Source: Eledone cirrhosa (taxonomy: Eukaryota). From it: a DNA stretch of 64,000 nt. The notes under the pieces were generated by a model that ran no database searches, was not told the origin of the DNA, and was given only the letters and a program-made list of their open reading frames with translations. Shown here one piece after another: positions 1 through 28,899 of this stretch (positions within the stretch are counted from its first letter, which is position 1; each line of letters opens with the position of its first letter). Position numbers and translations under genes: made by a program. Location: NCBI GenBank assembly GCA_964016885.1, contig OZ024741.1, positions 394,568,001 to 394,632,000 of the forward strand, written 5' to 3'.

Positions 1-405
1 TACCTCTTCGGTGATGCCCTGATTAACTTTTTCAAATTTCATTTGAAAAGGAAAATCAGGGTAGAGAGGGAAGTGCTCTCTTCCCAGCATTTTGTTGAAA
101 GATGGGTGAGAGAAGCAAGTATGGCCCGAATGAATGGGCCTACTCTGAGTATGTGTCTGTAAATTAAAGGTGGAAAACTGGGAGAGGGCACTTGCCCTGG
201 TGGTCAGGGCCACTGTGGTCTTTTAATGGGCTTTCTCCACAAATGTCCCTTGGAAGTCTCCCCCCTATTGGGGAATTTTTTCTTTGTTATTTTATTTCAA
301 CCTCTGTTTTTTTACACGCAGAAATGCCCATTTGTACCGTCCTGTATTGTCCTGTACTGTCCTTAATGTCTACTTTATGTGAACCCTTGTGGTTAATAAA
401 GAAAA
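1..405 (+). mobile_element. 3' end of Tx1-like LINE (copy A; ORF2 C-terminus and 3' UTR), cut by the window edge
   Basis: Nearly identical to 5918-6321, the end of copy B; ends AATAAAGAAAA and runs into (ATT)n. Confidence 0.95.

Positions 406-436
<31 letters not shown>
406..436. repeat. (ATT)n spacer between Tx1 copies A and B
   Basis: Pure ATT run seen in the sequence. Confidence 0.98.
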
Positions 437-645
437 GGCGACCTACGTAGGAAATCGTATTATCGTGAGCTCCGCAAAGGTTTGTTATTTCCGTTTGTTT
501 AAAAATTGCCATTTATGGAAAATTTTATTGTAAACTGTTTATAAGCACACATACATTGTTTTCCGAAAAGGACACCCAAAAAGATTGGGGCCTTGTGCCC
601 AAAATTTTAACTTTTATTATTATCCAAAAATTTCTTTGAAAAAAA

Positions 646-2544
646 ATGGCTAATTCCCCTCTGCACGAAGCAGCTGAAAGCCTTCCTCACAAAATAACAC
701 CTCACACCGACACCACCATTGTAAATGTTACTACGTTTGCCAACACAAAAAAAAATATAAGCAGTAGCAATATTTTAAATTTGTCTCAGGCAGACATTCA
801 TTTCCCGCCATTACCAATGACTGCAGGTGTTAAACCCTCCACCACCACCACCACCGCGACAACCACCACCACCACCACCACCACCGCGACAACAGAAACA
901 AAAGAAGAAAAAAATAAATTAACTCGTGACGTCGAAATGAAATCAAGCAAAATGGACTCTTCCCCACCAAAGACGACTGACGTCACAACCACCACAACTG
1001 AAAATAAAATTAATATTAACGATAGCAACAACAACAACAATGACATTATAAAACCGACCCTCAGTTTCGCCATCGTAGCAAAACAATTCGAAGCGTTCAC
1101 GGTAACCCAAGAAGATTTAGAAAATGCCAAACAAATGGTAAAGAAAGATGGGTACAGGGTCAGCCTCACCCCCACCCCCCACCCCCCACCTAATAAAATG
1201 GAGCATCGGCGCCTATGCACCGTGTCGTATAGAACAATAAATGTAAAATCGCGCCGAGTGGAACGGGCATCCGAGTCCCAAATCCAAAAAGCTTTGGGAC
1301 ATGTGTGGGCAAGAAAAACCCACATCAGACGTGGGCAAAAGTATGGAACCGTGGATGTGTTCTTTGAAACACCAGAGGAGGCTAGAGAACACTCCATGGC
1401 CCCATTAAAAAGTGACGACCTCACACTCGTCCCAAGCTATTGTGGCCAGAGACTCGTAAAGATCAGGGTGACCCACGTTCCACCGGCCATCGAAATTCCC
1501 TGGCTAATAGCGGCTGTCCTCACCGGCATCGAAGCCAACACGAAAATAATAGCAGTAGCAAAAGAAAAGCAGGAAAACTGGTCCGGATCTGGGATGGAGC
1601 TCCTGATCCAAGCGGACCAAAAAAGCATTGAGGAGATCCCAGAGGTAATAGACCTCACTGACGGCAGCCACCTCACGGTAATTGTCGAGGGCAGAAGACC
1701 TAGGTGTGTCGTTTGTGGTGAAGGAACCCACCTAAGGGCTTTCTGCCCGCAGGCTAAAAGGTTGAGGCCACCTCTCCTACCCACCCTAGTGACAAAACCA
1801 TCAACACCACCAGTAGCAGAGATGGCAGCAACAACTGTAGCAGCAACAACAGAAGCAACTATAACAGCAACAACCCCAGCAACAGTAGCAAAACCAACAC
1901 CACTACCACCACCAGCAAAACCAACACCACCACCACCCAACGCTTCAGAACTAGCACCAGCGCCTACACCATCCACCACACCACAACCAAAACTAACGGC
2001 TGTGGAGGATTTTCCACTCCCCGGCCTATCACAACTGGAGACAGATTGTGACGACGAGGAGTGGGAAACGATATCCGGAAAAAAAAAAAGAAACCAAAAA
2101 AGAAAAAATTCTCTTCCTTCCCCCTCCAAAAACAAAATACAGAGGGAAACAAATAAACTAAGAAACAAAAAAGTTAGGACAGATATGCCACCATCCACAC
2201 CAGCATCACCAACCCGATCAACCCAAACACCAACACCATCACCATCATTAACCCCAGCACCACCATCACCTACACCACAAAAGTCACCAAAATGCGAAAC
2301 AGAAACAAACCCACAACAAACGCAAACAAAACAAAACAACCAAAACGATACACACTACACAGCATTAAATTTGAACAACAAGCAATTATTACACTACATC
2401 CAACACAACACCAGCATCACAGAAAAAGACAACACAACAACCCCAAAATTCACACCACCTCCACACATACAAATCACTCGCATCACACAGAAAACGTACA
2501 TGACACTAAAACAAAAATTCCCCAAAGACATCGGAGACTTCTGA
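646..2544 (+). CDS. Tx1-like ORF1, nucleic-acid-binding protein with CCHC zinc knuckle and Thr/Pro-rich regions
   Basis: 632 aa with CVVCGEGTHLRAFC (CX2CX4HX4C). The TGA stop is CGA in copy C, and the frame stays open to TAA at 2646, so the ancestral ORF1 was probably longer. Confidence 0.88.
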   Translation: MANSPLHEAAESLPHKITPHTDTTIVNVTTFANTKKNISSSNILNLSQADIHFPPLPMTAGVKPSTTTTTATTTTTTTTTATTETKEEKNKLTRDVEMKSSKMDSSPPKTTDVTTTTTENKININDSNNNNNDIIKPTLSFAIVAKQFEAFTVTQEDLENAKQMVKKDGYRVSLTPTPHPPPNKMEHRRLCTVSYRTINVKSRRVERASESQIQKALGHVWARKTHIRRGQKYGTVDVFFETPEEAREHSMAPLKSDDLTLVPSYCGQRLVKIRVTHVPPAIEIPWLIAAVLTGIEANTKIIAVAKEKQENWSGSGMELLIQADQKSIEEIPEVIDLTDGSHLTVIVEGRRPRCVVCGEGTHLRAFCPQAKRLRPPLLPTLVTKPSTPPVAEMAATTVAATTEATITATTPATVAKPTPLPPPAKPTPPPPNASELAPAPTPSTTPQPKLTAVEDFPLPGLSQLETDCDDEEWETISGKKKRNQKRKNSLPSPSKNKIQRETNKLRNKKVRTDMPPSTPASPTRSTQTPTPSPSLTPAPPSPTPQKSPKCETETNPQQTQTKQNNQNDTHYTALNLNNKQLLHYIQHNTSITEKDNTTTPKFTPPPHIQITRITQKTYMTLKQKFPKDIGDF

Positions 2545-2680
2545 CAAGCACTCTCCAGGAGGATTTATAAGGACATCCTTCCTGAGGAGGCCACAAGCAG
2601 TGAAAAGGATGGAAAAACCGTCCTTCCCCTACGAGAAGTAAGGTAAGTGGTATTTCCCATCTTTTCCACTCCTTTTCAAC

Positions 2681-5600
2681 ATGACCTCACTCAGAATAGG
2701 CAGCATAAATGCGCGTGGCTTGGGGTCGTCATGGAAGCAGGGCCACCTGCTCAACGACCTCAGGTCACTAAACATAGATGTAGTGGCCATCAGCGAGACC
2801 AGAATCTCCGAAGCACAGGCTGTCGCACCGATCTTCGGCGGCTACGATGTGTACGCATCTCCCTTCGGGGGGAGGAGTTGCTGTGCTTTTTCGGAGAGGT
2901 TTGGATCTTGCCATACGGGCCATCTTCCTGGACCCAGAAGGTAAGTTGGTGGTGCTGGACGTGACCAGCGGAGACGGGCAAGCTTTCAGGTTAGTGGCCG
3001 TCTATGCCCCGACAGGAGCAGGGCGGCCTGATTTCTTCCGGCGTCTGGAGACCTTTCTTGGAACGTCCCGCTCTTTAGTGTTAGTGGGCGACTGGAACGG
3101 GATCTTAGGTGCACGCTGGGATTGTGTGGGATTAGTGGATAGGGAAGGAGGGTGCAAGAGTCTCACCAACCTGCTCAGACGTTTTGAACTGTCTGACAGG
3201 TACCGAATGGATTTCCCGAATGTACCAATGTGGACTTGGACAAATCGCATAGGGTCATCCAGATCATATCTAGATAGAGTATTTTGTAGGGAAATAGATA
3301 GGTCTAGCATAGGCTGTCCACAATTCAAGATAGTCAGCTACACGGACCACAAATTCGTGATCTGTGTGCTTGACTTAGATAGGCTTCATAGACGAGGACC
3401 CGGCTACTGGAAGCTAAACGCGTCCTTACCAGCGCGCAAGGCCTACGGAGACCGGATTAGCGAACTAGTTAAGCGGGCGCTGACGGGGGCCATCGTCAAC
3501 AACAAGTGGTGGTTTGCTCTGAAAAGAGCAATTAGAATAGAGTCCATTAGGTTTAGTAAGACTTTAGCAATAGAGAAAAATAGAGCAGAGGGAGAACTAG
3601 TTAGAAAATTAGATGAGGCGCTTAGCAAAGGCATCGCGACCGACGTGCTTGCGGCGAAATTGGCCCTTGACCAATTCTTCAATGCAAAGCACGAAGGCTG
3701 CGTTGTCAGAGCTAGGGTGCGTGCTCTCAGACACGAGGGGACGAAAGCCGTTCAATGGGCCCGAGTGGCGGAGGCGCGTCGTGGCAACAAAGCCACGATC
3801 CGGTCTTTGGTGGACCACGACGGGCGCATGCTACTCGATCCCGGGCAAATGTGTGAAGCTTTTCAGCGACACTTCGCTCAACTGTTCGGGGGCAGTGGCG
3901 GGCCGGATCGAGGGATGGACTTTAGTGTCTACCTCGACGGACTGCCGCGGCTTTCGGCCACTGAGGCGGAGTGTTGCGAAAAGCCGATAACAACCGCTGA
4001 AGTACGGGATGCAATGACTAGTTGCACAAGGGGCAAATCGCCTGGTTTGGATGGTCTGCCCTATGAACTTTACGTACAAATGCCAAACTTGTTCGGAGGC
4101 CTCTTGGCGGACGTCTACTGCAACTGGCAACAGAACGGGAGAATTCCCAGCTCTGTGAGCCGAGGAGCGGTGGCGCTGCTGAGAAAGGATCCGAACAAGG
4201 GGGATAACATAGATAATTTTAGGCCCATAACTCTGCTAAACACAGAGTTCAAGATTTTGGCCAAGGTGCTAGCAAAGAGGTTGGCGCTTGTCGTTGGTGG
4301 TCTGGTGGGAGAGGCACAGACATGCGCCATTCCCGACAGATCCATCCACGACAACCTCCACCTCATGCGATACATCGTAGAGAGGGTAGCTAGGGAACCT
4401 GGCACGGGTGGGTCTTTGATCAATTTAGATCAGTCGAAAGCCTTCGATAGGGTCGACCATCGTTACCTAGCGGCAGTCCTGAGGGCGGCTGGCTTTGGGC
4501 CCGTCTTCAGAGGCTGGATCGCTGCCATGCACAGCGACATCTGCTCTGTAGTGAGAGTGAACGGTCACCTTTCGGAACCGTTCAACATCATGCGCTCGGT
4601 CCGCCAAGGATGTCCCCTCTCGTCCCTATTGTACGTATTGACTCTCGAGCCATTACTGCACAAACTGGAGACGTTGAGGGGGTCCCGCGCGAACTAGGAT
4701 GCGGAAGATCCGTGTCAGCATATGCCGACGATGTCACCGTAGTGGTGTCGAACGCCAAACACATCGAGGCGATCGGCACTACACTAAGAGAATACGAAGC
4801 GGTGACAGGAGCAATGATCAACCAGGAAAAGTCAGTGGGCCTGCAGCTCGGCACCTGGAGAGGCAGGTCCAACAGCGTCGTCGGGCGCTGGACGGACGGA
4901 CCGGTTAAATTGCTAGGGGTCTGGTTCGGTCCAGACCTCCAGACGGACAAAAACTGGGACGAGGTGACGAGCAGGGTGGCTTCTCTCACCCAGAAATGGG
5001 CCGAGAGGAAGCTATCCCTAAAAGGTCGAGCGGAGGTGGCGAATGCGTACATCGCATCCGTCATCTACTACCGCCTGACCGTCGTACCTTGTCCTAAGCC
5101 CCGCCTGACTGCGCTGGAGCGTTTGCTCTTTCGCTTCTTGTGGAAGGGACGCGCTCCGATGGTCAGGCGGTCCATCTGCTGTCAACACCCGCTACGTGGA
5201 GGGCTGGGCATGCCGTGGCTGATGATGCGCAGACACGCGCTCAGGCTACGACATCTCCACCTCTTCCTCGACGGTGATCAGGTGTGGTCGCCGTTTGCAA
5301 GACACGTTTTACCCCAGCTCGTCTCCTTGACGGGGCTGCAGTCCTGGGTCGAGCGAGGACCGAGAGGGAGCGCTTGGAGACTGGAATGTCTTCAGGCGCT
5401 CACAGCCCTCGACCAATCGGGCAATGTGATCGGTGGAAACTCCACCTTGGCGTTCTATAGGGGATTAGTGGAGGGGAAGAGCGACGACGTACTTGGAGAA
5501 ACTCTAGGCGTCGACGAAAATCAACTTGCCAATCTCTTCGGAAGGACTTTCGGGCCGGGGCCTATGGACAACTTCCAGAAATCCCTGGCCTGGCAGTGCT

Positions 5601-6079
5601 ACCGAGGAGCTTTGCCAGTTCGGGATAAACTCTACAGGCATGGAGGTGCCGTCAGCAGGGCATGTCCGAGATGCGCGCAGGGCGACGAAACCGTCCTGCA
5701 CGCACTCGTCCAGTGTCCGAGCATTGCTGACTTGTGGGTTTATGTCGAACACCTGCTGTCACGTGTAGGACGGATCCAGCTATCAGCTGAGTCCATCGTG
5801 AGGATTGCCCCACCCCCTTCCTTTAGCCTGGAAGGGCAGGCAGTTTTTATCTGTCTGGTGGCCATGGCGAAAGAGATAGTATGGTGGACACGTTTGAAAG
5901 GGCTGAAGACAAGCACTTACCTCTTCGGTGATGCCCTGATTAACTTTTTCAAATTTCATTTGAAAAGGAAAATCAGGGTAGAGAGGGAAGTGCTCTCTTC
6001 CCAGCATTTTGTTGAAAGATGGGTGAGAGAAGCAAGTATGGCCCGAATGAATGGGCCTTCTCTGAGTATGTGTCTGTAA
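2681..6079 (+). pseudogene. Tx1-like ORF2 (APE endonuclease, RT, C-terminal zinc finger) with frameshifts near 2870 and 4680
   Basis: APE motifs GSINARG, VYAP, GDWN, SYLDR, TDH. RT motifs KSPGLDG, FRPITLLN, DQSKAFD, QGCPLS, YADD. Zinc finger CPRC..ETVLHALVQC. Confidence 0.93.
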
Positions 6080-6321
6080 ATTAAAGGTGGAAAACTGGGA
6101 GAGGGCACTTGCCCTGGTGGTCAGGGCCACTGTGGTCTTTTAATGGGCTTTCTCCACAAATGTCCCTTGGAAGTCTCCCCCCTATTGGGGAATTTTTCTT
6201 TGTTATTTTATTTCAACCTCTGTTTTTTTACACGCAGAAATGCCCATTTGTACCGTCCTGTATTGTCCTGTACTGTCCTTAATGTCTACTTTATGTGAAC
6301 CCTTGTGGTTAATAAAGAAAA

Positions 6322-6322
<1 letters not shown>

Positions 6323-6379
<57 letters not shown>
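6323..6379. repeat. (ATT)n spacer between two converging 3' ends (Tx1-B and Dong-A1)
   Basis: Pure ATT run. Confidence 0.98.
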
Positions 6380-6450
6380 TGAGTCTCAGTCATTGATGTT
6401 AGTTAACTGGAAAGTTTGTTGAAATGTATATCAAGCCACTACCTGCAGCC

Positions 6451-9400
6451 TCAGATATTCAGGACGTATCGGAGGGTTCTTGCTGTTCCCAGCAAGCATG
6501 CCTTTTGAAGCGTTCCAAAAAGCGTGAAGGGGCCAATTTTCTTTAACCATCCCTGGAAACTTTTTGAGATAGTCCCTAGTGCGCCTATGACAATCGGGAT
6601 CACTTTGACTTCATGGCAGTTCCAAATCCTTTTTACCTCCCACTTTAAGTCCTGGTATCGGTTAATTTTCTCCCTCTCCTTCTCTTGCACTCTCGTGTCG
6701 AATGGGCAGGCCACATCCATAATCAGGCACGATCTTTTTTCTTTGTCCACAACCACCAGGTCAGGTCTATTGTGTTCCAGTTTCTTGTCCGCCTGTATCC
6801 TAAAATCCCACAGCACCTTCACCTGATCGTTTTCTATCACCGCCTCTGGCTTATGCTCATACCACTTCTCAGAATGTGGTAAATTGTTTACTTTGCATAG
6901 GTGCCAGTGGATCACCCTACTCATCACATCATGTCTCCAGCCCTTATAGTGGGTCTGGGCTAGGTGTTTACACTCGGATACAATGTGAGCCACAGTCTCC
7001 TCTCTCTCTCTACAGATCCTGCACAGTGGGCTAGCCTCCTCCTTGTAAATGTGGTGTTTCAACCACTTCGTTTTGAGGGCCTGCTCCTGCGCAGCCATTA
7101 ACATTCCTTCTGTAGCCTTTTTAAGGTCTGCTCTTTTCAACCAGTTCCATGTCTGTGGATCTCTAAATTCAGTTTTCTCAAAGAAGGTACTATGAAGGGA
7201 TTTTTCCTGAAGCTGCTCTTTCTCCTTGATGTTATTTCCTCCTTGGACATCCCCTGGCCTATTGTCCCCTCCTTCAGTACAGTTCTGAGCATTGGCTCCT
7301 TACTATCAGTCACGTATTTGTGTAGGTTGTTTTTCTCCATCTGAACACAGTCCTCTATGCTGATAAGACCTCTTCCACCTTCAGATCTCCTTAAGTAGAG
7401 TCTATCGACATCACTCCTCTTGTGGAACATATTGTAGATAGTCAATAGCTTCCTAGTCTTCCTATCCATTTCTTTTTGTTCAGCAACATTCCATCTCAGA
7501 ATTCCCGCACTGTACCTAATAATAGACACAGCTCGGGAATTTACTGCACTTATGGCATTCCTACTGTTCAGATGTGACTTTAATACGCTCCTTACTCTCC
7601 GAAGGTATTCAGTTCTTATCAATTCCTTCATTTTTTTGTTCTTGATGTCATCAGCCTCCAGAACGCCCAAATACTTGTATCCTTCCTCAGAGTCAATTTC
7701 CTTTATCATCTCACCTGTTGGTATCTGGATTCCGTTACTTCTGCTCAACTTACCCCTCCTCATCACAATGACTCCACACTTACTAATACCAAATTGCATA
7801 CATATATCATTGCTGAAAATACGGACAGTGTCAACAAGCACATCCAACTCCTTCTCACTCTTCCTGAAGAGCTTAAGATCGTCCATGAAGAGGAGGTGAT
7901 TGATGGTAAGCCCTCCCTTTCCCAACCTGTATCCTGCTCTCACTTTTCGCAGTACACTGGTCAGGGGCATCAGGGGGACAAACAACAGAGGGGACAGACT
8001 ATCTCCCTGGAAGATACCTCTCTTGATCTTCACGCTTCCCAAGGATTCTCCAGTTGATGTCAACTCTGTTTCCCAGGACTTCATACTTTTGCCCAACAAC
8101 TGCCTGATGTTATCTGCCACCTTGAAGATCTCCAGGCTTTTGGTGATCCAAGAATGAGGCACCATGTCAAATGCCTTTTTGTAGTCTATCCATGCCATGG
8201 CAAGACCAGTGTGTCTCCTCTTGCAATTCCTCATTACCATCTTATCAATAAGTAACTGGTCCTTTGTACCACGTGACTTCTTTCGGCATCCTTTCTGTTC
8301 GTCCGGTAACAAGTTGTTTGTGTGGAGGTGATGGTAGATTTCCTCAGACATAATGCTTGTCAACAGTTTCCACATTACGGACAGACATGTGATAGGTCTA
8401 TAGTTGGTAACATCATTACCCTTGATTCGGTCTTTCATTATCAGAACTGTGGTACCTTTTGTCAACCACTCTGGTACCTCACCTGACATCAAGCAGTCAT
8501 TGAACATGGTTGTCAGTTTCGGGTGGAGGGATGTTATGTTTTTATTCCAATACCCCTGCGCACCATCTGGGCCAGGTGATTTCCAGTTGGTTAGTTTTTT
8601 GGCCTGCCCCTTAAGAGTTTCAACTGTGATACTCAAATCAGTTTGTTGGTGTGCCTGTTCACTGATCTCCTTCTGTACTGTCTCAATCCACCCTGCCTGG
8701 TCATTATGTTTAACATCCTGCTCCCATATTCCTCTCCAGAATGTTTTAGTTTGTTCCGCCCCAGGGATCAAGTCGTTGCCTCTTTCTTTCCCCTCAAGCT
8801 GTCCAAACAGCATCTTCTGGTTGTTGTCGAACATGCGGTTCTGTCTATACTGGCTGATTCTGTTCTCGCATCGCCTGATTTTTGCACTCTTTGCTACAAT
8901 GCGTTGCTTCAGTTCCTCTATGATAATATTTAGCTTTTTCCTCCTAGTTTTGTACTTTATTTCCAGTCTATTTTTAGTGTCTATGTTTTTTAGTGTCCCA
9001 TTCAGTAGGGACTGAAGCTTTCCAATGTCATTTCTCATTTCCCTGATTTGACCACTCAGTCGTTTCTTCCACCAAGGCTCTGCTCTTTCTTGTCTGTTGT
9101 TTCCTCTCGCTTTTATACCAAGTAGTTTCCTCACCGTATTTGCTGTTGCTTTGGGGATATTGTTGCACTAGTGAAGGCTCCTCGCCTCAAGGTATGGGAT
9201 GACTTTGTTTACCTTAGCTGTTGTTTCTTTTAACTTTTTCCTGTCTACAAATCTTAGGTTCATAGGTCTCCCACTATCATTGTTCAATTCATCTACCACT
9301 AAGTTTAGGATATCTACCAAATCTTGACCTAGCCCGTCAGCATTCACCTCCTCAGTGGCCGTATCTCTGTTCCAGGTATTATTTATCTCAGCATTCAGAT

Positions 9401-9875
9401 CATTGTCTGTTTCGGGTGGTTCCTCCGTTCTCTCGACCTCTTCACCTTCATTTCCCACTGGCTCGTTTGCCTGGCATACTCCACCCTCCATCTCCAAGCT
9501 AATCTCTCTGCTCAGTTCCTCCAGTTCCAGCTCGCTTATCCACCCATTAGTTCTTATTACCCGAGCCTGCCCGGCCAGTTTTTGTTCATCTAATTTAAAT
9601 GGACCAATCTCGTTCTAGATGTTATGCATCCTTTTCCTATAGCCTTTCTCCTTGGGGTTACTCTTCAGGTAACATTGCATAACAGTTCTATTCAATTCTT
9701 TCGTCCAGTTGGTTCTGGTCCCTTTCCTTCTTCTTCTTCCTCCTCCGACACTAGCAGTATTTGGTTGACAGCCAGGTCCCTGCTGCTGAGCCAGGGAGCA
9801 CCTGTTGGGTGAGAGTCTGTCACATGACATTCTAGTCTCCATTTCACCGTTATTCGAACTGTTTAGGTTCGACAT
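6451..9875 (-). pseudogene. Dong-A1 ORF (RT + RLE) with premature stops near 9615 and 9168 and frameshifts near 9150 and 7200
   Basis: Fragments 9615-9875, 9168-9497, 7137-9134 and 6451-7140. Motifs [68 protein letters not shown]. Confidence 0.92.
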
Positions 9876-10204
9876 TTAAACACTCTTATCAAGGATTGGC
9901 GAATGTATGGTTACATAACCACCGGTGAATTACTTGTCTCCGGTGGTTTCGTCACTCCACGTGACTTTTGTGTGGCATTATCACGCTGTAGACGAACCCA
10001 AATAAACAAACAAACAAACAGGCAGAAAAAACCCCAAAAATGAATAAGCATAAGTTTCATTGTAATGTAGTGTCTGAATGTCTGACTTAGTTTTTCCCTT
10101 CCCTTCTCTGTCCGTCCGTTTGTTTTTCTCTTCATTTTTATTTCCTTTACGTTTTTCGTTGTTGCTGTGCTGCTTTTATTTATTTATTTTTTTTTATTTT
10201 GACT

Positions 10205-10796
10205 GGGTCATCAATTCAGTCTATTTATATATTTTGTTGCCTTCCTCTTTTAGTGAGAATTCTACAATGTAGCAGGGGCTAGCGGGAGAGAATAGCAGCG
10301 GTAGTGATATTGAGGCAGCGGCAGAGGTGGTGATGGCGGTGCTGTGCCAGCAGCAACTATCAGGAGGTAGTGGGAGAGAATAGCGGCGGTAGCGATAATG
10401 AGGCAGCGGCGGTGGCGATGTGGTCGTATTACTGTAGCGATGGTGTTGAAGATGGAGTAGAAATTTGAGTCGACTTGACCAGAGTTTTCATCGTGGCAGT
10501 GGTGGTGGCACTGGTGGTGAAATTATCTTTAGTGAAATTATCATTAGACGCGTATATGTGTTGACATATTTTTCTTAATATTGGAATTAAACATTTTGTT
10601 AAAACTAAAACTTGATTTTGATTATTGTTTTTTTTTTTTGATTTTGACCGGGTCATCAATAGTTTTCATCGTGGTAGTGGTGGTGGTATTGGTGGTGAAA
10701 TTATCTTTAGTGAAATTATCATTAGTCGCGTATATGTGTTGACATATTTTCCTTAATATTGGAATTAAACATTTTGTTAAAACTAAAACTTGATTT

Positions 10797-10832
<36 letters not shown>

Positions 10833-11248
10833 TTACCAGGTCATCAATTCAGTCTATTTATATATTTTGATGTTTTCCTCTTTTAGTGGGAATTCTACAA
10901 TGTAGCAGGGGGTAGCGGGAGAGAATAGCAGCGGTAGTGATATTGAGGCAGCGGCAGAGGTGGTGGTGGCGGTGCTGTGCTAGCAGCAACTAACAGGAGG
11001 TAGTGGGAGAGAATAGCGGCGGTAGCGATAGTGAGGCAGCGGTGGTGGTGATGTGGTCGTATTACTGTAGTGATGGTGTTGAAGTTGGAGTAGAAATTTG
11101 AGTCGACTTGACCAGAGTTTTCATCGTGGTAGTGGTGGTGGTATTGGTGGTGAAATTATCTTTAGTGAAATTATCGTTAGTCGCGTATATGTGTTGACAT
11201 ATTTTTCTTAATATTGGAATTAAACATTTTGTTAAAACTAAAACTTGA
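10205..11248 (-). repeat. Tandem duplication inside the Dong-A1 5' leader (about 410 bp unit twice, with a partial copy of about 140 bp between, separated by T-runs)
   Basis: 10205-10615 matches 10838-11248; 10660-10795 repeats the end of the unit. The near-identical ORF calls 10429-10659 and 11062-11253 reflect this. Confidence 0.9.
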
Positions 11249-11659
11249 GGCAATAGTAATAGTAATTATTATTATTATGCTGAGATTGGTGGTGGTGGTG
11301 GTGAAATTGCCGTTATCTGGCTGTTGTGTTTAGTGTACACAGAGGGGTGATGGGGTAGGTGGTGTATCTAGTTTCTGATGTTGGTGAAATTGCTGTTATT
11401 TGGCTGTTCTATATAGTGTAGACAGAGGGGGTTTTCTTCCATTTATAACCATTTTCTATTTTGAATATAAAATGTATAATACAAAATTGAATATTTGAGC
11501 GATATAACAATATATTGTGGATCCGAATTTTTTGGGACTCAAGCTGGATGTTTTATGCAACATTTGTACTAAGAATTGTTATTTCACAATTGATTTAAAT
11601 ATGTTAAAAAATCAAAACTTACGGGAGCGATTTCTCGACCTTCTATCCACCATGTGTGT

Positions 11660-11702
11660 CTTCTTCTTCTTCTTCTTATTATTATTATTATTATTATTAT
11701 TA
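11660..11702. repeat. (CTT)n(ATT)n spacer between the Dong-A1 5' end and the Dong-B 3' end
   Basis: Seen in the sequence. Confidence 0.97.
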
Positions 11703-16682: not shown

Positions 16683-18799
16683 CCTTGAATCTCAGTCATT
16701 GATGTTGGTTAACTGGAAAGTCCGTTGGATTGAATATCAAGCCACTACCTGCAGCCTCAGATATTCAGGACGTATCGGAGGGTTCTTGCTGTTCCAAGCA
16801 AGCATGCCTTTTGCAGCGTTCCAAAAAGCGTGAAGGGGCCGATTTTCTTTAACCATCCCTGGAAACTTTTGGAGATAGTCCCCAGTGCGCCTATGACAAT
16901 CGGGATCACTTTGACTTCATGGCAGTTCCAAATCCTTTTCACCTCCCACTTTAGGTCCTGGTATCGGTTAATTTTCTCCCTCTCCTTCTCTTGCACTCTC
17001 GTGTCGAACGGGCAGGCCACATCCACAATCAGGCACGATCTTTTTTCTTTGTCCACAACCACCAGGTCAGGTCTATTGTGTTCCAGTTTTTTGTCCGTCT
17101 GTATCCTAAAATCCCACAGCACCTTCACCTGATTGTTCTCCATCACCGCCTCTGGCCTATGCTCATACCATTTCTCAGAATGTGGTAGATTGTTTACTTT
17201 GCACAGGTGCCAGTGGCTCACCCTGCCCATCACATCGTGTCTCCAGCCTTTATAGTGGGTCTGGGCTAGGTGTTTACACTCGGACACAATGTGAGCCACA
17301 GTCTCCTCTCTCTCTCCACAGATCCTGCACAGTGGGCTAGCCTCCTCCTTGTAGATATGGTGCTTCAACCACTTCGTTTTGAGGGCCTGCTCCTGCGCAG
17401 CCATTAGCATTCCTTCTGTAGCCTTTTTGAGGTCTCCTCTTCTCAACCAGTTCCATGTCTGTGGATCTCTAAATTCAGTTTTCTCAAAGAAGGTACTATG
17501 AAGGGGTTTTCCCTTAAGGCTGCTCTTCCTCCTTGATGTTATTTCCTCCCTGGACATCCCCTGGCCTACTGTCCCCTCCTTCAGTACAGTTCTGAGCATT
17601 GGCTCCTTACTATAGGTCACGTATTTGTATAGGTTGTTTTTCTCCATCTGAACACAGTCCTCTATGCTGATAAGACCTCTTCCACCCTCAGATCTCCTTA
17701 GGTAGAGTCTATCGACATCACTCCTCTTGTGGAACATGTTGTAGATAGTCAATAGCTTCCTAGTCTTCCTATCCATTTCTTTCTGTTCAGCAACATTCCA
17801 TCTCAGAATTCCCGCACTGTACCTAATAATAGACACAGCTCGGGAATTTACTGCGCTTATGGCATTTCTGCTGTTCAGATGTGACTTCAATACGCTCCTT
17901 ACTCTCCGAATGTATTCAGTTCTTAACAATTCCTTCATTTTTTTGTTCTTTATGCCATCAGCCTCCAGAACGCCCAAATACTTGTATCCTTCCTCAGAGT
18001 CAATTTCCTTTATCATCTCACCTGTTGGTATCTGGATCCCGTTACTTCTGCTCAACCTACCCCTCTTCATCACAATGACTCCACATTTACCAATACCAAA
18101 CTGCATACATATATCACTGCTGAAAATACGGACAGTGTCAACAAGCACATCCAACTCCTTCTCACTTTTCCCGAAGAGCTTAAGATCGTCCATGAAGAGG
18201 AGGTGATTGATGGTAAGCTCTCCCCTTCCCAACTTGTATCCTGCTCTCACTTTTCGCAGCATAATGGTCAAGGGCATCAGGGCAAGGACAAACAACAGAG
18301 GGGACAGGCTATCTCCCTGGAAGATACCTCTCTTGATCTTCACGCTTCCCAAGGATTCTCCAGTTGATGTCAACTCTGTCTCCCAGGACCCCATACTCCT
18401 GCCTAGCAACTGTCTGATGTTATCTGCCACCCTGAAGATCTCCAGGCTTTTGGTGATCCAGGAATGAGGCACCATGTCAAATGCCTTTCTGTAGTCTATC
18501 CATCCCATGGCAAGATCAGTGTGTCTCCTCCTGCAATTCCCCATTACCATCTTATCAATAAGCAACTGGTCCTTTGTACCACGTGACTTCTTTCGGCATC
18601 CTTTCTGTTCGTCCGGTAACAAGTTGTTTGTGTGGAGGTGATGGTAGATTTCCTCAGACACAATGCTCGTCAACAGTTTCCACATTACGGGCAGACATGT
18701 GATAGGTCTATAGTTGGTAGCATCATTACCCTTGATTCGGTCTTTCATTATCAGAACTGTGGTACCTTTTGTCAACCACTCTGGCACCTCACCCGACAC
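16683..18799 (-). mobile_element. Dong-A copy A2, 5'-truncated; RT-RLE frame open (16757-18799)
   Basis: High identity to the A1 3' half; truncated at SGEVPEW and joined directly to (TAT)n. Confidence 0.93.

Positions 18800-18866
<67 letters not shown>
18800..18866. repeat. (TAT)n spacer
   Basis: Pure run of 67 bp. Confidence 0.98.
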
Positions 18867-18867
<1 letters not shown>

Positions 18868-21842
18868 CTTGAATCTCAGTCATTGATGTTGGTTAACTGG
18901 AAAGTCCGTTGGAATGAATATCAAGCCACTACCTGCAGCCTAAGATATTCAGGACGTATCGGAGGGGTCTTGCTGTTCCCAGCAAGCTTGCCTTTTGAAG
19001 CGTTCCAAAAAGCGTGAAGGGGCCGATTTTCTTTAACCATCCCTGGAAACTTTTGGAGATAGTCCCCAGTGCGCCTATGACAATCGGGATCACTTTGACT
19101 TCATGGCAGTTCCAAATCCTTTTTACCTCCCACTTTAAGTCCTGGTATCGGTTAATTTTCTCCCTCTCCTTCTCTTGCACTCTCGTGTCGAATGGGCAGG
19201 CCACATCCACAATCAGACACGCTCTTTTTTCTTTGTCCACAACCACCAGGTCAGGTCTATTGTGTTCCAGTTTCTTGTCCGTCTGTATCCTAAAATCCCA
19301 CAGCACCTTCACCTGATCGTTCTCCATCACCGCCTCTGGCCTATGCTCATACCATTTCTCAGAATGTAGTAAATTGTTTACTTTGCACAGATGCCAGTGG
19401 ATCACCCTGCCCATCACATCATGTCTCCAGCCCTTATAGTGGGTCTGGGCTAGGTGTTTACACTCGGATACAATGTGAGCCACAGTCTCCTCTCTCTCTC
19501 CACAGATCCTGCACAGTGGGCTAGCTTCCTCCTCGTAAATATGGTGTTTCAACCACTTCGTTTTGAGGGCCTGCTCCTGCGCAGCCATTAACATTCCTTC
19601 TGTAGCCTTTTTGAGGTCTCCTCTTCTCAACCAGTTCCATGTCTGTGGATCTCTAAATTCAGTTTTCTCAAAGAAGGTACTATGAAGGGATTTTCCCTTA
19701 AGGCTGCTCTTTCTCCTTGATGTTATTTCCTCCTTGGACATCCCCTGGCCTACTGTCCCCTCCTTCAGTACAGTTCTGAGCATTGGCTCCTTACTATCAG
19801 TCACGTATTTGTGTAGGTTGTTTTTCTCCATCTGAACACAGTCCTCTATGCTGATAAGACCTCTTCCACCCTCAGATCTCCTTAGGTAGAGTCTATCGAC
19901 ATCACTCCTCTTGTGGAACATGTTGTAGATAGTCAATAGCTTCCTAGTCTTCCTATCCATTTCTTTTTGTTCAGCAACATTCCATCTCAGAATTCCCGCA
20001 CTGTACCTAATAATAGACACAGCTCGGGAATTTACTGCGCTTATGGCATTTCTGCTGTTCAGATGTGACTTCAATACGCTCCTTACTCTCTGAATGTATT
20101 CAGTTCTTAACAATTCCTTCATTTTTTTGTTCTTTATGCCATCAGCCTCCAGAACGCCCAAATACTTGTATCCTTCCTCAGAGTCAATTTCCTTTATCAT
20201 CTCACCTGTTGGTATCTGGATTCCGTTACTTCTGCTCAACCTACCCCTCCTCATCACAATGACTCCACACTTACTAATACCAAACTGCATACATATATCA
20301 CTGCTGAAAATACGGACAGTGTCAACAAGCACATCCAACTCCTTCTCACTCTTCCCGAAGAGCTTAAGATCGTCCATGAAGAGGAGGTGATTGATGGTAA
20401 GCTCTCCCTTTCCCAACCTGTATCCTGCTCTCACTTTTCGCAGTACACTGGTCAGGGGCATCAGGGGGACAAACAACAGAGGGGACAGACTATCTCCCTG
20501 AAAGATACCTCTCTTGATCTTCACGCTTCCCAAGGATTCTCCAGTTAATGTCAACTCTGTTTCCCAGGACTTCATACTTTTGCCCAACAACTGCCTGATG
20601 TTATCTGCCACCTTGAAGATCTCCAGGCTTTTGGTGATCCAAGAATGAGGCACCATGTCAAATGCCTTTTTGTAGTCTATCCATCCCATGGCAAGACCAG
20701 TGTGTCTCCTCTTGCAATTCCTCATTACCATCTTATCAATAAGTAACTGGTCCTTTGTACCACGTGACTTCTTTCGGCATCCTTTCTGTTCGTCCGGTAA
20801 CAAGTTGTTTGTGTGGAGGTGATGGTAGATTTCCTCAGACATAATGCTTGTCAACAGTTTCCACATTACGGACAGACATGTGATAGGTCTATAGTTGGTA
20901 ACATCATTACCCTTGATTCGGTCTTTCATTATCAGAACTGTGGTACCTTTTGTCAACCACTCTGGCACCTCACCCGACACCAAGCAGTCATTGAACATGG
21001 CCGTCAGTTTCGGGTGGAGGGATGTTAAATTTTTAATCCAATACCCCTGCACACCATCTGGGCCTGGTCATTTCCAGTTGGTTAGTTTTTTTGCCTGCCC
21101 CTTAAGAGTTTCAACTGTGATACTCAAATCAGTTTGTTGGTGTGCCTGCTCACCGATCTCCCTCTGTACTGTCTCAATCCACCCTGCCTGGTCATTATGT
21201 CTAACATCCTGCTCCCATATTCCTCTCCAGAATGTTTTAGTTTGTTCCGCCTCAGGGATCAAGTCGTTGCCTCTTTCTTTCCCCTCAAGCTGTCCAAACA
21301 GCATCTTCTGATTGTTGTCGAACATGCGGTTCTGTTTATACTGACTGACTCTGTTCTCGTATCGCCTGATTTTTTCACTCTTTGCTAGAATGCGTTGCTT
21401 CAGTTCCTCTATGATAATATTTAGCTTTTTCCTCCTAGTTTTGTACTTTATTTCCAGTCTATTTTTAGTGCCTATGTTTTTTAGTGTCCCATTCAGTAGT
21501 GACTCAAGCTTTCCTATGTCATTTCTCATTTCCTTGATTTGACCACTCAGTCGTTTCTTCCACCAAGGCTCTGCTCTTTCTTGTCTGTTGTTTCCTCTCG
21601 CTTTTATACCAAGTAGTTTCCTCACCGTATTTGCTGTTGCTTTGAGGATATTGTTGCACTGGTGAAGGCTCCTCGCTTCAAGGTATGGGATGACTTTGTT
21701 TACCTTAGCTGTTGTTTCTTTTAACTTTTTCCTGTCTACAAATCTTAGGTTCATAGGTCTCCCACTATCATTGTTCAATTCATCTACCACTAAATTTAGG
21801 ATGTCAACCGAATCTTGTCCTAGCCCGTCAGCATTCATCTCC

Positions 21843-21843
<1 letters not shown>
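18867..21843 (-). mobile_element. Dong-A copy A3, 5'-truncated; ORF with one nonsense codon near 21068
   Basis: ORFs 21068-21838 and 18929-21052 are colinear with A1; WKSPG in A1 reads WK*PG here. Confidence 0.93.

Positions 21844-21902
<59 letters not shown>
21844..21902. repeat. (TTA)n spacer between two diverging 5' ends (Dong-A3 and Tx1-C)
   Basis: Pure run. Confidence 0.98.
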
Positions 21903-24900
21903 GGCGACCTACGTAGTAAATCGTATTATCGTGAGCTCCGCAAAGGTTTGTTATTTTCAGTTGTTTAAAATTGTCATTTATGGAAAATGTTTATTGTTAA
22001 TGGTATATAAGTGCACATATATTGTTATCTAAAAAGGACACTCAAAAAGATTGGGGCCTTGAGCCCAAAATTTTTATAATTATCAAACAAAAAATTTTTC
22101 TTTGAAAAAAATCATGGACGACTCAGAATCACACCTTCCTCACAAACTAACACCTCACACCGACACCACCATTGTAAATATTACTACGTTTGCCAACACT
22201 AAAAATATAAGCAGTAGCAATATTTTTAATTTGTAGGCAGACATTCATTTCCCGCCATTACCAATGACTGCTGGTGTTGAAGCCGCCACCCCCACCACCA
22301 GCACAGCGACAACAGAAACAAAAGAAAAAAATAAATTATCTCGTGATATCGAAACGAATTCAGCCAAAATGAACTCTTCCACACCGAACACCACTGACGC
22401 CACCACCACCACAACTGCAACTAAAATTAACAATAACAAAAATAACGATAACAACAACAGCAACAATGAGAATAAGAAAACTCTGTCTTTTGCCAGAGTA
22501 TTCCAGGTAACTCAGGGGGAATTAGAAGAAGCCAAAAAAATGGTAAAGATAGATGGGTACAGGGTCAGTGCCCCCCCCCCCACCCCCCACCCCACCTAAT
22601 AAAATGGAACATCGGCGCCTATGCACCGTGTCTTATCGGACGATTAACATAAAATCGCGCCGAGTGGAACGGGCATCCGAGTCCCAAATCCAAAAAGCTT
22701 TGGGACATGTATGGGCCAAAAAAAGCCACATCAGACGTGGGCAGAAATATGGAACCGTGGACGTGTTCTTTGAAACACCAGAGGAGGCCAGAGAACACTC
22801 CATGGCCCCATTAAGAAGTGACGACTTCACACTCGTCCCAAGCTATTGTGGCCAGAGACTCGTGAAGATCAGGGTGACCCACGTTCCACCGGCCATCGAA
22901 ATTCCCTGGCTAGTGGCTGCCGTCCTCGCCGGCATCGGAGCCAACACCAAGATAATGGAAATAGCGAAAGAAAAGCAGGAGAACTGGTCCGGATCTGGGA
23001 TGGAGCTCCTGATCCAAGCGGACCAAAAAAGCATTGAGGAGTTCCCAGAGGTAATAGACCTCACTGACGGCAGCCACCTCACCGTAATCGTCGAGGGCAG
23101 AAGGCCTAGGTGTGTCGTTTGTGGTGAAGGAACCCACCTAAGGGCTTTCTGCCCTCAGGCTAAAAGGTTGAGGCTACGTCTCTTACCCACCCCAGTGACT
23201 CAACCATCAACACCACCAGTAGCAGAAATGGCAGCAACAACTGTAGCAGCAACAACAGAAGCAACTGTAACAGCAACAACCCCAGCAACAGTAGCAAAAA
23301 CAACACCACCACCACCCAACGCGCCAGAACTAGCACCAGCACCTACACATTCCACCACGCCATAACCAAAACCAACGCCTGTGGAGGATTTTCCACTCCC
23401 CGGCTTATCGCAACTGGAGACAGATTGTGACGACGAGGAGTGGGAAACGGTATCAGAAAAAAAGAAAAAAAGAAAAAATCCCCTTCCTTCCCCCTCCAAA
23501 AACAAAATACAGAGGGAAACAAATAAACTATCAAACAAAAAAGTTAGGACAGCTATGCCACCATCCACACCAGCATCACCAACCCCATCACCACAAACAC
23601 GAACACCATCACCATCATTAACCCCAACACCACCATCACCAACACCACAAAAGTCACCAAAAAGCGAAACAGAAACAAACCCACAACAAACGCAAACAAA
23701 ACAAAACAACCAAAACGATACACACTACACAGCAATAAATTTGAACAACAACCAATTATTACACTACATCCAACACAACACCAGCATCACAGAAAAAGAC
23801 TACACAACAACCCAAAAGTTCACACCACCTCCACACATACAAATCACTCGCATCACACAGAAAACGTACACGACACTAAAGCAAAAATTCCCCCAAAGAC
23901 ATCGGAGACTTCCGACAAGCACTCTCCAGGAGGATTTATAAGGACATCCTTCCGGAGGAGGCCAGAAGCAATGAAAAGGATGGAGAAACCATCCTTCCCC
24001 TACGAGAAGTAAGGTAAGTGGTCTTTCCCATTTTTTTCACTCCATTTCAACATGACCTCATTCAGAATAGGCAGCATAAATGCGCGTGGCGTGGGGTCGT
24101 CATGGAAGCAGGGCCACCTGCTCAACGACCTCAGGTCACTAAACATAGATGTAGTGACCATCAGCGAGACCAGAATCTCCGAAGCACGGGCCTTCGCACC
24201 GATCTTCGGCGACTACGATGTGTACGCATCTCCCAGCCGTCCTGGATCGGGGGTGGGGAGGAGTTGCTGTGCTTTTTCGGAGAGGTTTGGATCTCGCCAT
24301 ACGGTCCATCTTCCTGGACCCAGAGGGTAAGTTGGTGGTACTGGACGTGACCAGCGGAGACGGGCAAGCTTTCAGGCTAGTGGCCATCTATGCCCCGACA
24401 GGAGCAGGGCGGCCTAATTTCTTCCGGCGTCTGGAGACCTTTCTTGGAACGTTCCGCTCTTTAGTGTTAGTGGGCGACTGGAACGGGATCTTAGATGCAC
24501 GCTGGGACTGTGTGGGATTAGCGGATAGGGGAGGAGGGTGCAAGAACCTCACCAACCTGCTCAGGCGTTTTGAACTGTCTGACAGGTACCGATTGGATTT
24601 CCCGAATGTGCCAATGTGGCTTGGACAAATCGCATCGGGTCATCCAGATAACATCTAGATAGAGTATTTTGTAGGGAAATAGATAGGTCTAGCATAGGCT
24701 GTCCACAATTCAAGATAGTCAGCTACACGGACCACAAATTCGTGATCTGTGTGCTTGACTTAGATAGGCTTCATAGACGAGGACCCGGCGACTGGAAGCT
24801 AAACGCATCCTTACCAGCGCGCAAGGCCTACAGAGACCGGATTAGCGAACTAGTTAAGCGGGCGTTGACGGGGGCCATCGTCAACAACAAGTGGTGGTTT

Positions 24901-27723
24901 GCTCTGAAAAGAGCAATTAGAATAGAGTCCATTAGGTTTAGTAAGGCTTTAGCAATAGAGAAAAATAGGGCAGAGGGAGAACTAGTTAGAAAATTAGACG
25001 AGGCGCTTAGCAAAGGCATCGCGACCGACGTACTTGCGGCGAAATTGGCCCTTGACCAATTCTTCAATGCAAAGCACGAAGGCTGCGTTGTCAGAGCTAG
25101 GGTGCGTGCTCTCAGTCACGAAGGGACGACAGCCGTTCAATGGGGCCGAGTGGCGGAGGCGCGTCGTGGTAACAAAGCCACGATCCGGTCTTTGGTGGAA
25201 AACGACGGGTGCATGCTACTCGATCCCGGGCAAATGTGTGAAGCTTTTCAGCGACACTTCGCACAGCTGTTCGGGGGCAGCGGCGGGCCGGATCGAGGGA
25301 TGGACTTTAATGTCTACCTCGACGGACTGCCGCGGCTCTCGGCCACTGAGGCGGAGTGTTTCGAAAAGCCGATAACAGCCGCTGAAGTACGGGAGGCAAT
25401 GACTGGCTGCACAAGGGGTAAATCGCCTGGTTTGGATGGTCTGCCCTATGAACTTTACGTACAGATTCCAGACTTGTTCGGAGGCCTCTTGGCGAACGTC
25501 TACTGCAACTGGCAACAGAACTGGAGAATTCCCAGCTCTGTGAGCCGAGGAGCTGTGTCGCTGCTGAGAAAGGATCCGAACAAGGGGGATAACAGATAAT
25601 TTTAGGCCCATATCTCTGCTAAACACAGAGTTCAAGATTTTGGCCAAGGTGCTAGCAAAGAGGTTGGCGCTTGTCGTTGGTGGTCTGGTGAGAGAGGCGC
25701 AGACATGCGCCATTCCCGACAGAACCATCCACGACAACCTCCACCTCATGCGATACATCGTAGAGAAGGTAGCTAGGGAACCTGGCACGGGTGGGTCCTT
25801 TATCAATTTAGATCAGTCGAAAGCTTTCGATAGGGTCGACCATCGTTACCCAGCGGCAGTCCTGAAGGTGGCTGGCTTTGGGCCCGTCTTCAGAGGCTGG
25901 ATCGCTGCCATGCACAGCGACATCTGCTCTGTGGTGAGAGTGAACGGTCACCTTTCGGAACCGTTCAACATCATGCGCTCGGTCCGCCAAGGATGTCCCC
26001 TCTCGTCCCTCTTGTACGTATTGACTCTCGAGCCATTACTGCACAAACCGGAGACGTTGAGGGGGGTCCCGCGCGAACTAGGATGCGGAAGATCCGTGTC
26101 AGCATATGCGGACGATGTCACCGTAGTGGTGTCGAACGCCAAACACATCGAGGCGATCGGCACTACACTAAGAGAATACGAAGCGGTGACAGGAGCAATG
26201 ATCAACCAGGAAAAGTCAGTGGGCCTGCAGCTCGGCACCTGGAGAGGTAGGTCCATGCCATCCAACAGCGTCGTCGGGCGCTGGACGGACGGACCGGTTA
26301 AATTGCTAGGGGTATGGTTCGTCCGGACCTCCAGACGGACAAAAACTGGGACGAAGTGACGAGCAGGGTGGCTTCTCTCACCCAGAAATGGGCGGAGAGG
26401 AAGCTATCCCTGAAAGGTCGAGCGGAGGTGGCTAACGCGTACATCGCGTCCGTCATCTACTACCGCCTGACCGTCGTACCTTGTCCTAAGCCCCGCCTGA
26501 CTGCGCTGGAGCGTTTGCTCTTTCGCTTTTTGTGGAAGGGACGTGCTCCGATGGTCAGGCGGTCCATCTGCTGTCAACACCCGCTACGTGGAGGGCTGGG
26601 CATGCCGTGGCTGATGATGCGCAGACACGCGCTCAGGCTACGACATCTCCACCTCTTCCTCGACGGTGATCAGGTGTGGTCGCCGTTTGCTAGACGCGTC
26701 TTTCCCCAGCTCGTCTCCTTGACGGAGCTGCAGTCCTGCGTCAAGCGAAGACCGAGAGGGAGCGATTGGAGACTGGAATGTCTTCAGGCGCTCACAGCCC
26801 TCGACCAATCGGGCAATGCGATCGGTGAAAACTCCACCTTGGCGTTCTATAGAGGATTAGTGGAGGGGATGAGCGACGACGTACTTGGAGAAACTCTAGG
26901 CGTCGAGGAAAATCAACTAGCCAATCTCTTCGGAAGAAGTTTCGGGCCGGGGCCTATGGACAACTTCCAGAAATCCCTGGCCTGGCAGTGCTACCGAGGA
27001 GCTTTGCCAGTTCGGGATAAACTCTACAGGCATGGAGGTGCCGTCAGCCGGGCATGTCCGAGATGCGCGCAGGGCGACGAAACCGTCCTGCACGCACTCG
27101 TCCAGTGTCCGAGCATTGCTGACTTGTGGGTTTATGTCGAACACCTGCTGTCACGTGTAGGACGGATCCAGCTATCAGCTGAATCCATCGTGAGGATTAC
27201 CCCGCCCTCTTCCTTTAGCTGGGAAGGGCAGGCAGTTTTTATCTGTCTGGTGGCCATGGCGAAAGAGATAGTATGGTGGACACGTTTGAAAGGGCTGAAG
27301 ACGAGCACTTACCTCTTCGGTGATGCCCTGATTAACTTTTTCAAATTTCATTTGAAAAGGAAAATCGGGGTAGATAGGGAAGTGCTCTCTTCCCAGTATT
27401 TTGTTCAAAGATGAGTGAGAGAAGCAAGTATGGCCCGAGTGAATGGGCCTACTCTGAGTATGTGTCTGTAAATTAAAGGTGGAAAACTGGGAGAGGGCAC
27501 TTGCCCTGGTGGTCAGGGTCACTGTGGCCTTTTAATGGGCTTTCTCCACAAATGTCCCTCGGAAGTCTCCCCCCTATTGGGGAATTTTTCATTGTTATTT
27601 TTTTGTTACATCCTCTGTTTTTGTTTTTTTTACACGCAGAAATGCCCATTTGTACCGTCCTGTATTGTCCTGTACTGTCCTTAATGTCTACTTTATGTAA
27701 ACCCTTGTGCTTAATAAAGAAAA
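21903..27723 (+). mobile_element. Full-length Tx1-like element copy C, more decayed (multiple frameshifts and stops in ORF1 and ORF2)
   Basis: Colinear with copy B from GGCGACCTACGTAG to AATAAAGAAAA, followed by a short TATTATTA and unique flank. ORF2 pieces span 24052-27414. Confidence 0.93.
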
Positions 27724-28899
27724 TATTATTACAGTGGTAATAAGATTGTATGCACTATGTTGTACAAATTTTAAGAAAGATTTCATATACAAAAAGCAAA
27801 TAAATTTTTGTTTTAATAAATGACTTTAATACGAGGAAATCTTAATTTTTTAGTATATGTTACATATACATTATGATGCAGATCATCTGCTTTATTTTTT
27901 TTTTTTTTAATCCTATTTTGCTGGCACAAAACCAAAGAGATTCGTTCTTAGAAAAATCAAAGAACGTAGTAGAATTCGATGTTAAATATCAAAATGCTGG
28001 TAGGAAAACTTATCAATCAATGTTTTACTTCAGGTTAATCGTGAACATCATGGATTCATTATTTTAATCATTATTTCTCAGCAGAAACTTAACTTTAATC
28101 AATGCAGATGTGTTTACTGCACTTGGGAATAATTTTCACTGACAGCATGTCAAAAGGAAAATCTGTCAATAATCAGACTACAATGGAAAAAAAAAGTAAG
28201 AAAAGAAATATATTTAAGCTTTAGTTATTGTTTACATTGAACTTATATGAAAAGGGGTTTTATTGATTTGTTTCTCGTTGAAATTTAGCATTACACTTCA
28301 ATATCGACTGACGTCGGATATACCCTCATCACAGTTGTGTTTTATTGATTGATTATTGCAAAAGTTTTGCTTCAACAAAAATTAATTCCTATACGTATTG
28401 TGTGTCATAACGCATAAAATATTTTCATACAGCATATTGGCTGTTTTATATATTAATATAGATATATTTAAAAATGTATGTATAAAGAAGCAGATTGGTG
28501 ACTGTTGCTGCATGGAACTCGCCTAATAAAATGTAACATTGCAATTCAACTAGCTCCATAGCGACGTCGCTAACATAAGAAAATCAATACTGAGTCTTTT
28601 TCACGTGAAACGCATCTGAGAGTTGATTTGATTACTCATTTCACATCTATATAATAATGTTGGGATAGCTACAGCACGATAAACATGAATTTTTGTTTTA
28701 AGTGAAACATTATGATCTTTCCAGAGGCTCTGGTATAATTTTCCGAAAGAAGAACTCTGAATGCCAGGATGTCGCTACTGTTCGACGATTCAAATAGGAG
28801 ACCTGCTGTTCGACGTATCCATGCGGTTCTTCAATATGATTGAGGTCACTGAACGTGTGTCTATTTATACTGCTGCCTTCTAAAAAGGAACACGCCTCC

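Follow-up and report, generated by a model that had tools for sequence, protein, structure and literature searches.

We analysed a 64,000-nt window (C2:394,568,001-394,632,000) of the 3.0-Gb genome of Eledone cirrhosa and found that positions 1-27731 belong to an array in which two classes of long interspersed nuclear elements (LINEs) are joined through one (ATT)n microsatellite. Tx1-like elements (Tx), which encode an apurinic/apyrimidinic-type endonuclease (APE), have ATT on their sense strand, and Dong-type elements, which encode a restriction-like endonuclease (RLE), have AAT on theirs. The array is very probably one of many such mixed arrays in this genome, which likely arose as one target-primed insertion after another entered the same repeat.

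Self-comparison, open reading frames (ORFs) and Pfam matches resolved positions 1-27731 into seven LINEs, three of the APE type on the + strand and four of the RLE type on the - strand, together with their tracts and coding regions, in the following order (RT, reverse transcriptase).

1-406, + strand: 3' end of a full-length Tx1-like LINE (family TxA) that starts 5,492 bases left of the window; 98.6% identical to the copy at 437-6322
407-436, + strand: (ATT)10 between two Tx copies
437-6322, + strand: full-length Tx1-like LINE, with ORF1 at 646-2541 (CCHC knuckle)
2681-6076, + strand: ORF2 of this LINE, with APE, RT and CCHC; two frameshifts
6323-6379, + strand: (ATT)19, from a Tx 3' end to a Dong-A 3' end
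6380-11677, - strand: full-length Dong-A with RT, CCHC and PD-(D/E)xK endonuclease, ORF broken; its long leader contains internal duplications as well as an (ATT)4 at 11265-11276
11678-11701, + strand: (ATT)8, with (TCT)6 before the tract, from a Dong-A 5' end to a Dong-B 3' end
11702-16649, - strand: full-length Dong-B, protein 41% identical to that of Dong-A
16650-16685, + strand: (ATT)7 plus the GTT-interrupted tail of a Dong-A
16686-18798, - strand: 5'-truncated Dong-A
18801-18866, + strand: (ATT)22
18870-21843, - strand: 5'-truncated Dong-A with a 712-codon open frame plus one stop upstream
21846-21902, + strand: (ATT)19, from a truncated Dong 5' end to a full-length Tx 5' end
21903-27723, + strand: full-length Tx1-like LINE, more decayed, 92% identical to 437-6322
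27724-27731, + strand: right end of the array, two ATT units followed by unique DNA

All seven tracts of three or more ATT units in 1-27731 had ATT on the + strand, and no tract of three or more AAT units was present anywhere in the 64-kb window. Because the tract at 11265-11276 lies inside the Dong-A leader, only six of the seven separate elements. Inspection of the 60 kb left of the window placed the start of the array at a short ATT tract at C2:394,536,977, 31,023 bases before the window. The whole array spans about 58.8 kb and holds nine Tx-like LINEs, five Dong-type LINEs and one short interspersed nuclear element (SINE), the leftmost members being the most decayed. Between window positions -31,023 and -5,526 there were at least four further Tx-like families (L061-L064) with different 5' ends, each starting with G after an ATT tract; their ORF2 is conserved, whereas leaders and ORF1 diverge. 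An earlier note on this DNA had described seven abutting, un-nested elements with nothing but ATT at their junctions in an array of more than 27 kb, with all APE-type elements on + and all RLE-type elements on -. The elements, their order and their polarity stand, and the strand assignment was borne out by ORFs and Pfam throughout 1-27731. The array proved larger than claimed, however, and the junction rule is not strict, as only two units mark the right end and the junction at -25,588 has no ATT.

Genome-wide ends were counted with exact sequence patterns. Full-length 5' ends of the window's Tx family matched 2,308 times; TTATTATT directly preceded 2,167 of them (93.9%), T stood directly before the first G in 2,298, and the other 10 also followed an ATT tract. 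Exact matches numbered 7,210 for Tx 3' ends, 2,321 for Dong-B 3' ends and 1,689 for the 5' end shared by the Dong elements. On inspection, an ATT flank was found at 30/30 sampled Tx 5' ends (the top 30 of 40 matches, among them that of the window itself) and, on C1, at each of the first 30. Dong 3' ends lay on ATT with the polarity opposite to Tx in 30/30 cases for Dong-A (the top 30 of 40, among them the window copy) and in 30/30 sampled cases for Dong-B. Full Dong 5' ends lay on ATT in 26 of 30 cases, the others adjoining TTC/ATC runs (two), two units (one) or no tract (one). The target typical of R4/Dong elements, (TAA)n read as TAA on the sense strand, was thus found at 60/60 3' ends and 26/30 full 5' ends, and the sequence-specific insertion typical of Tx1 elements at 2,167/2,308 5' ends. 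The earlier note had staked its reading on copies elsewhere not having mostly non-ATT flanks or random orientation, and neither was seen (Tx, 2,167/2,308; Dong 3' ends, 60/60).

A junction table of fifteen 40-kb regions and the window region gave the same picture, with ATT runs at 31/31 full Tx 5', 40/45 Tx 3', 28/28 Dong 3' and 4/4 full Dong 5' ends. Only its full-length 5' ends and its 3' ends were used, the truncated-end rows being a mixture of true ends and internal fragment borders. Truncated ends were counted separately; 5'-truncated copies cannot carry an RNA leader, so their ATT flanks matter as evidence of targeting. ATT adjoined 10/10 true ends for Dong-B and 15/21 for Dong-A (counted by eye, with three internal deletions per family left out), and 13/22 true ends for Tx (27 rows recounted, five SINE- or inversion-split rows dropped).

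The two classes also cluster together. In the first 84.7 Mb of C1, which holds 100 Tx 5' ends and 72 Dong-B 3' ends in our sample, 20 of the Tx ends lay within 10 kb of a Dong-B 3' end and all 20 pairs shared the same ATT polarity; chance controls gave a mean of 1.7 (uniform) or 2.3 (shifted), with a maximum of 8 in 2,000 trials each. Extending the distance to 20 kb paired 30/100 Tx 5' ends, 28 with the same polarity. Fifteen 40-kb regions at the first Tx sites of C1 showed the same junction grammar without exception, and 13 contained a mixed array. For the 30 Tx 5' ends that come first on C1, the neighbour was Dong in 12 cases, a Tx-group element in 10, a SINE in 1 and nothing in the library in 7. 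Across 60 evenly spaced 10-kb stretches of C1-C4 (600 kb, a small sample), Tx and Dong LINEs covered 5.0% of bases and touched 8/22 tracts of at least five units and 7/10 of at least eight units; adjacencies between LINEs and tracts, SINEs included, had the expected polarity in 17/17 cases. The claim that a single microsatellite had been singled out for expansion thus holds in that the locus is real, but the habit is genome-wide and shared by several families. Likewise, nesting is absent from the window but occurs elsewhere: at L199-L200 (C1:24,835,300-24,836,060) one Tx carries a reversed 3' fragment of another in its AAC-rich ORF1; the insertion lies at a near-cognate (GTT)n site and has a 15-bp target duplication.

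Two further repeats (L067, L077 and L111; L116, L117 and L292) have ATT-run ends and appear to act as array seeds, and many "free" ATT tracts may be tails of other retroposons. L018 and L019, 600 kb apart on C2, share the same upstream junction and are probably a segmental duplication.

Several observations weigh against an origin by successive targeted insertions. Among the 22 truncated Tx 5' ends, three adjoined (TTC)n or (GTT)n and one an ACT-rich tract, one lay on an AAT tract with the wrong polarity and four lay in other DNA; an ATT run was absent at 5/45 Tx 3' ends. Targeting specificity is not absolute, and near-cognate targets occur. The left neighbour of the copy at 437-6322 is also its closest copy, by a small margin (98.6% vs 98.2%), and this adjacent Tx pair could have arisen by local duplication. 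No read or contig bridged the internal junctions (reads on 6150-6560; the repeat was skipped in mapping). The 15 bases that follow the last Tx copy in the window are not found again in front of it, although a 15-bp duplication would require this, and the 3' ends of the SINE and Tx align weakly, 20-58 of 1,000 shuffles scoring as high (64 for Dong-B).

The unbridged junctions and the 98.6% likeness of the adjacent Tx pair would be accounted for if the array were a tandem duplication, a product of unequal crossover at the microsatellite or an assembly join. We regard this as highly improbable. The copies in the window vary in family, in the point of truncation and in identity (92-98.6%). Dispersed copies are similarly alike: the copy at 437-6322 shares 98.6% and 92.1% identity with its array mates and 92.4-98.2% with 11 dispersed copies. 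The differences among the window copies argue for separate insertions rather than duplication. The array members fall into at least five diverged families, and the identical junction grammar recurs in 15/15 other regions. The right border (27724-27731) was bridged without any difference by a 2,848-bp contig of run X1, possibly from the assembled sample, and in raw reads of three other samples, all from one study, the Tx 3' end runs into ATT. RAD reads gave no coverage of the unique flank.

The arrays could also be read as the result of broad insertion into AT-rich DNA without sequence-specific cutting, in which the elements make their own ATT tails and survive or accumulate in arrays. The left edges of some arrays, which are truncated Tx copies without upstream ATT, and the partly templated tails of Dong-A agree with such a process. 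Tails cannot explain why ATT stands at 5' ends in both classes, in full-length as well as truncated copies, or the polarity of neighbours, however, and SINE and Tx copies in imperfect sites carry no tail beyond the duplication. With the genome-wide Tx 5' flank counts this alternative is largely refuted, and we give it very little credence.

Successive target-primed insertion accounts for these features as follows. Flanks, polarity, co-clustering and ATT-starting duplications of 10-19 bp (in the SINE and one Tx) were observed directly; the nicked strands we infer from the model of target-primed reverse transcription (TPRT). Under TPRT, the APE enzyme would nick the AAT strand just after AAT, the end of the Tx RNA would anneal through AUU, and the other strand would be cut at a distance of about 15 bp, so that some five ATT units are duplicated. 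Dong faces the opposite way, and a nick of the ATT strand is therefore expected of its RLE enzyme, after which Dong would add its own AAT/AAC tail. The GTT interruptions in Dong-A tails are common to independent copies, which suggests that the tail is copied from RNA. Since an APE insertion would duplicate units and Dong would bring a tail, each insertion should leave a tract on either side; arrays would come to hold most long tracts and attract further insertions, a form of preferential attachment that does not need cooperation between the two classes. The self-propagating landing pad with opposite-strand priming that was proposed earlier is in this respect supported by flanks, polarity and duplications, the priming itself being a prediction of the TPRT model.

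Part of the ATT could have another source. Even with real targeting, the ATT before full-length Tx copies may be copied from RNA, if transcription begins within the tract upstream, or runs through it, and the resulting (AUU)n leader anneals to the target. Such a leader is suggested by the near-perfect 5' phase, with T before the first G in 2,298/2,308 cases and TTATTATT in 2,167/2,308, and by the duplication missing at the last window copy, which has (ATT)19 upstream and two units downstream. SINE duplications, unlike the fixed Tx phase, vary from 10 to 19 bp, and R2 RNA of many species carries upstream target sequence (PMC3774820). The phase would be fixed equally well by short-homology joining or by duplications whose length is always a multiple of three, however, and tract lengths change after insertion. 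We hold a copied leader to be possible rather than probable, and as an addition to target-primed insertion more than a replacement for it. The assertion in the earlier note that the tract at 21844-21902, lying between two 5' ends, must be target-derived was nevertheless too strong, as the GTT interruptions of Dong-A and the fixed Tx phase may both mean RNA copying.

A SINE of a type also found in the arrays extends the pattern of ATT-associated insertion.

58502-58694, + strand: SINE copy of about 190 bp with ATT-starting direct repeats on both sides

SINE matches (95) made up 2.3% of the 600 kb sampled. At least two ATT units stood upstream of 26/40 complete SINEs, compared with 296/9,080 background windows (3.3%), and direct repeats of 10-19 bp that were not pure repeat were present in 11/31 complete SINEs, starting with ATT in 11/11. 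The SINE inserts at minimal ATT sites with 10-19-bp duplications; a 15-bp ATT-starting duplication was also found at one Tx fragment nested in another Tx. A hairpin with a CTTGT loop, on three different stems, was present at 49/50 Tx 3' ends, 77/89 SINE 3' ends and 20/37 unassigned ends. Given the upstream ATT and this shared hairpin, the SINE probably borrows the Tx enzyme, and it would seed new ATT sites. The plain alignment of SINE and Tx 3' ends was set aside as evidence of a link because it is too weak against shuffles. ARAGORN found no transfer RNA in the window and hence no sign of a tRNA origin for the SINE. A second CTTGT-loop hairpin, similar to that at the 3' end, was seen in the Tx leader at window 587-600.

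The identity of both LINE classes was examined from their predicted proteins. The + strand elements have two ORFs, with a CCHC knuckle in ORF1 and APE, RT and a C-terminal CCHC in ORF2. Two Tx copies (L191 and L167) retain an intact ORF2 of 1,139 residues, and the closest solved structure to that of L191 is human L1 ORF2 (E=1.7e-52, vs E=3e-21 for R2). This comparison places the Tx elements in the L1 group; "Tx1" and "Dong" are putative labels that fit by architecture and by targeting or target, respectively. Among 47 homologues examined for Tx, and their clusters, none was a named reference, and the homologues examined for Dong likewise gave no clade names. The - strand elements have a single ORF with an RT (RVT_1 matches), a C-terminal CCHC finger and a PD-(D/E)xK endonuclease. 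CxxC-H-C, RHD and NRPD...D...E...K motifs are present in both Dong-A and Dong-B. Of the solved proteins, those of R2 are the best relatives, and the alignment takes in the endonuclease stretch. Judged by architecture and TAA target, these elements would fit R4/Dong. Both translations have a W-containing motif near the N terminus that resembles the R4 motif; Pfam gave no match in the N-terminal frame of Dong-B. The R4/Dong clade has a Myb/SANT-like N-terminal domain without zinc fingers (PMC7998251).

The leaders of the two Dong families are far more alike than their proteins. The 5' 430 bases of Dong-B are 86% identical to the Dong-A leader (window 11292-11702 and 16254-16680), and the last 380 leader bases of A-B pairs (L237-L266) are on average 86% and up to 97.9% identical. 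A tree built from 29 leaders, without L257, L258 and L260, did not separate Dong-A from Dong-B and required three changes between them, at least two forced by supported branches. The tree suggests leader exchange between Dong-A and Dong-B.

Each ingredient of this system has precedent. Dong elements of the R4 clade (Bombyx Dong, DongAg, snail DongBg and ostracod Dong1/2) target (TAA)n in insects, molluscs and cnidarians (PMC7998251, PMC3812793); at the 5' junction the sense strand reads TAA, and Bombyx Dong has an HDV-like (hepatitis delta virus-like) ribozyme at its 5' end (PMC3774820). The Dong elements described here share the single ORF, the RT with restriction-like endonuclease and the (TAA)n target, but form two families of 41% protein identity with a near-identical leader and share their tracts with an APE group. 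They showed no HDV-like ribozyme at the 5' end in two weak tests, an Rfam scan, which gave nothing relevant, and our own descriptor, which had no positive control.

Among APE elements, the Tx1L endonuclease is sequence-specific (PMC1950540), and the microsatellite targets of the Tx1 clade are (TC)n for Kibi, (TTC)n for Koshi and (TTCC)n/(TTTC)n for crocodilian Tx1 families (PMC4494074). The Tx elements are likewise microsatellite-specific APE elements of the L1 group, and a few adjoin (TTC)n, but their (ATT)n target differs by one base from the Koshi unit. SART and TRAS insert in opposite orientations into one telomeric repeat of Bombyx and form arrays (PMC10088271); both are of the R1 clade and restricted to chromosome ends, whereas here the arrays are interstitial, occur at many sites and are formed by two endonuclease classes. 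Keno (APE, Tx1) and Utopia (RLE) evolved in parallel to target the same U2 small nuclear RNA gene (PMC4640811), at the same site with the same 3' flank in a low-copy gene, whereas the present elements use opposite strands of a repeat which every insertion lengthens. In Octopus vulgaris, Dong-R4 (five families, 1,129 insertions) and L1-Tx1 (13 families, 421 insertions) were both recently active, and hotspots of transposable elements (TEs) were reported (PMC13282606); both groups are active or expanded in octopus genomes (PMC13282606, PMC8967140). The available parts of PMC13282606 and PMC8967140 state no target site, that of PMC13282606 describes no mixed arrays, and that of PMC3747384 contains nothing on an (ATT)n target. 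Literature searches, which did not extend to Repbase, found neither an (ATT)n-specific Tx1 element nor mixed APE/RLE microsatellite arrays, an absence that may reflect limited access. What appears to be new is the (ATT)n-specific Tx1-like group, together with the use of opposite strands by two endonuclease classes and the scale.

A broader picture is plausible, though we offer it tentatively. An undescribed radiation of (ATT)n-specific Tx1-like elements, its SINE and two Dong families may form a self-renewing target ecosystem, in which two unrelated endonucleases read opposite strands of the repeat and make more of it, full-length Tx RNAs carry a repeat leader and array neighbours swap leaders. 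In the DNA sampled, such a system would make up about 5%, and it would account for the majority of long ATT tracts in the 3-Gb genome; microsatellite targeting would then drive genome growth rather than provide a low-copy safe harbour. Targeting of microsatellites is usually viewed as causing little harm; here it supports young copies in the thousands and arrays that extend over tens of kilobases, and it could account in part for the TE hotspots that have been described in large mollusc genomes. (ATT)n is likely a new target for Tx1-type endonucleases, for which intact ORF2 copies exist, and in the arrays APE and RLE enzymes can be compared directly, in a natural setting, on opposite strands of one repeat. 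For genome work on Eledone cirrhosa, long ATT tracts are poor single-copy markers and likely assembly breakpoints.

Other remnants were observed near the array. At window 51346-52231 a decayed fragment of Tx ORF2 is directly followed, on the same strand and without an ATT tract, by a Dong-like RT fragment. Other Dong-like fragments of 27-62% protein identity lie outside the array at L064-L065 (window -47,153 to -39,299). An RT fragment with an inverted 234-bp piece is located at window 43825-44513, and a frame with a PHD finger, typical of the ORF1s of other LINEs, at window 60571-61254.

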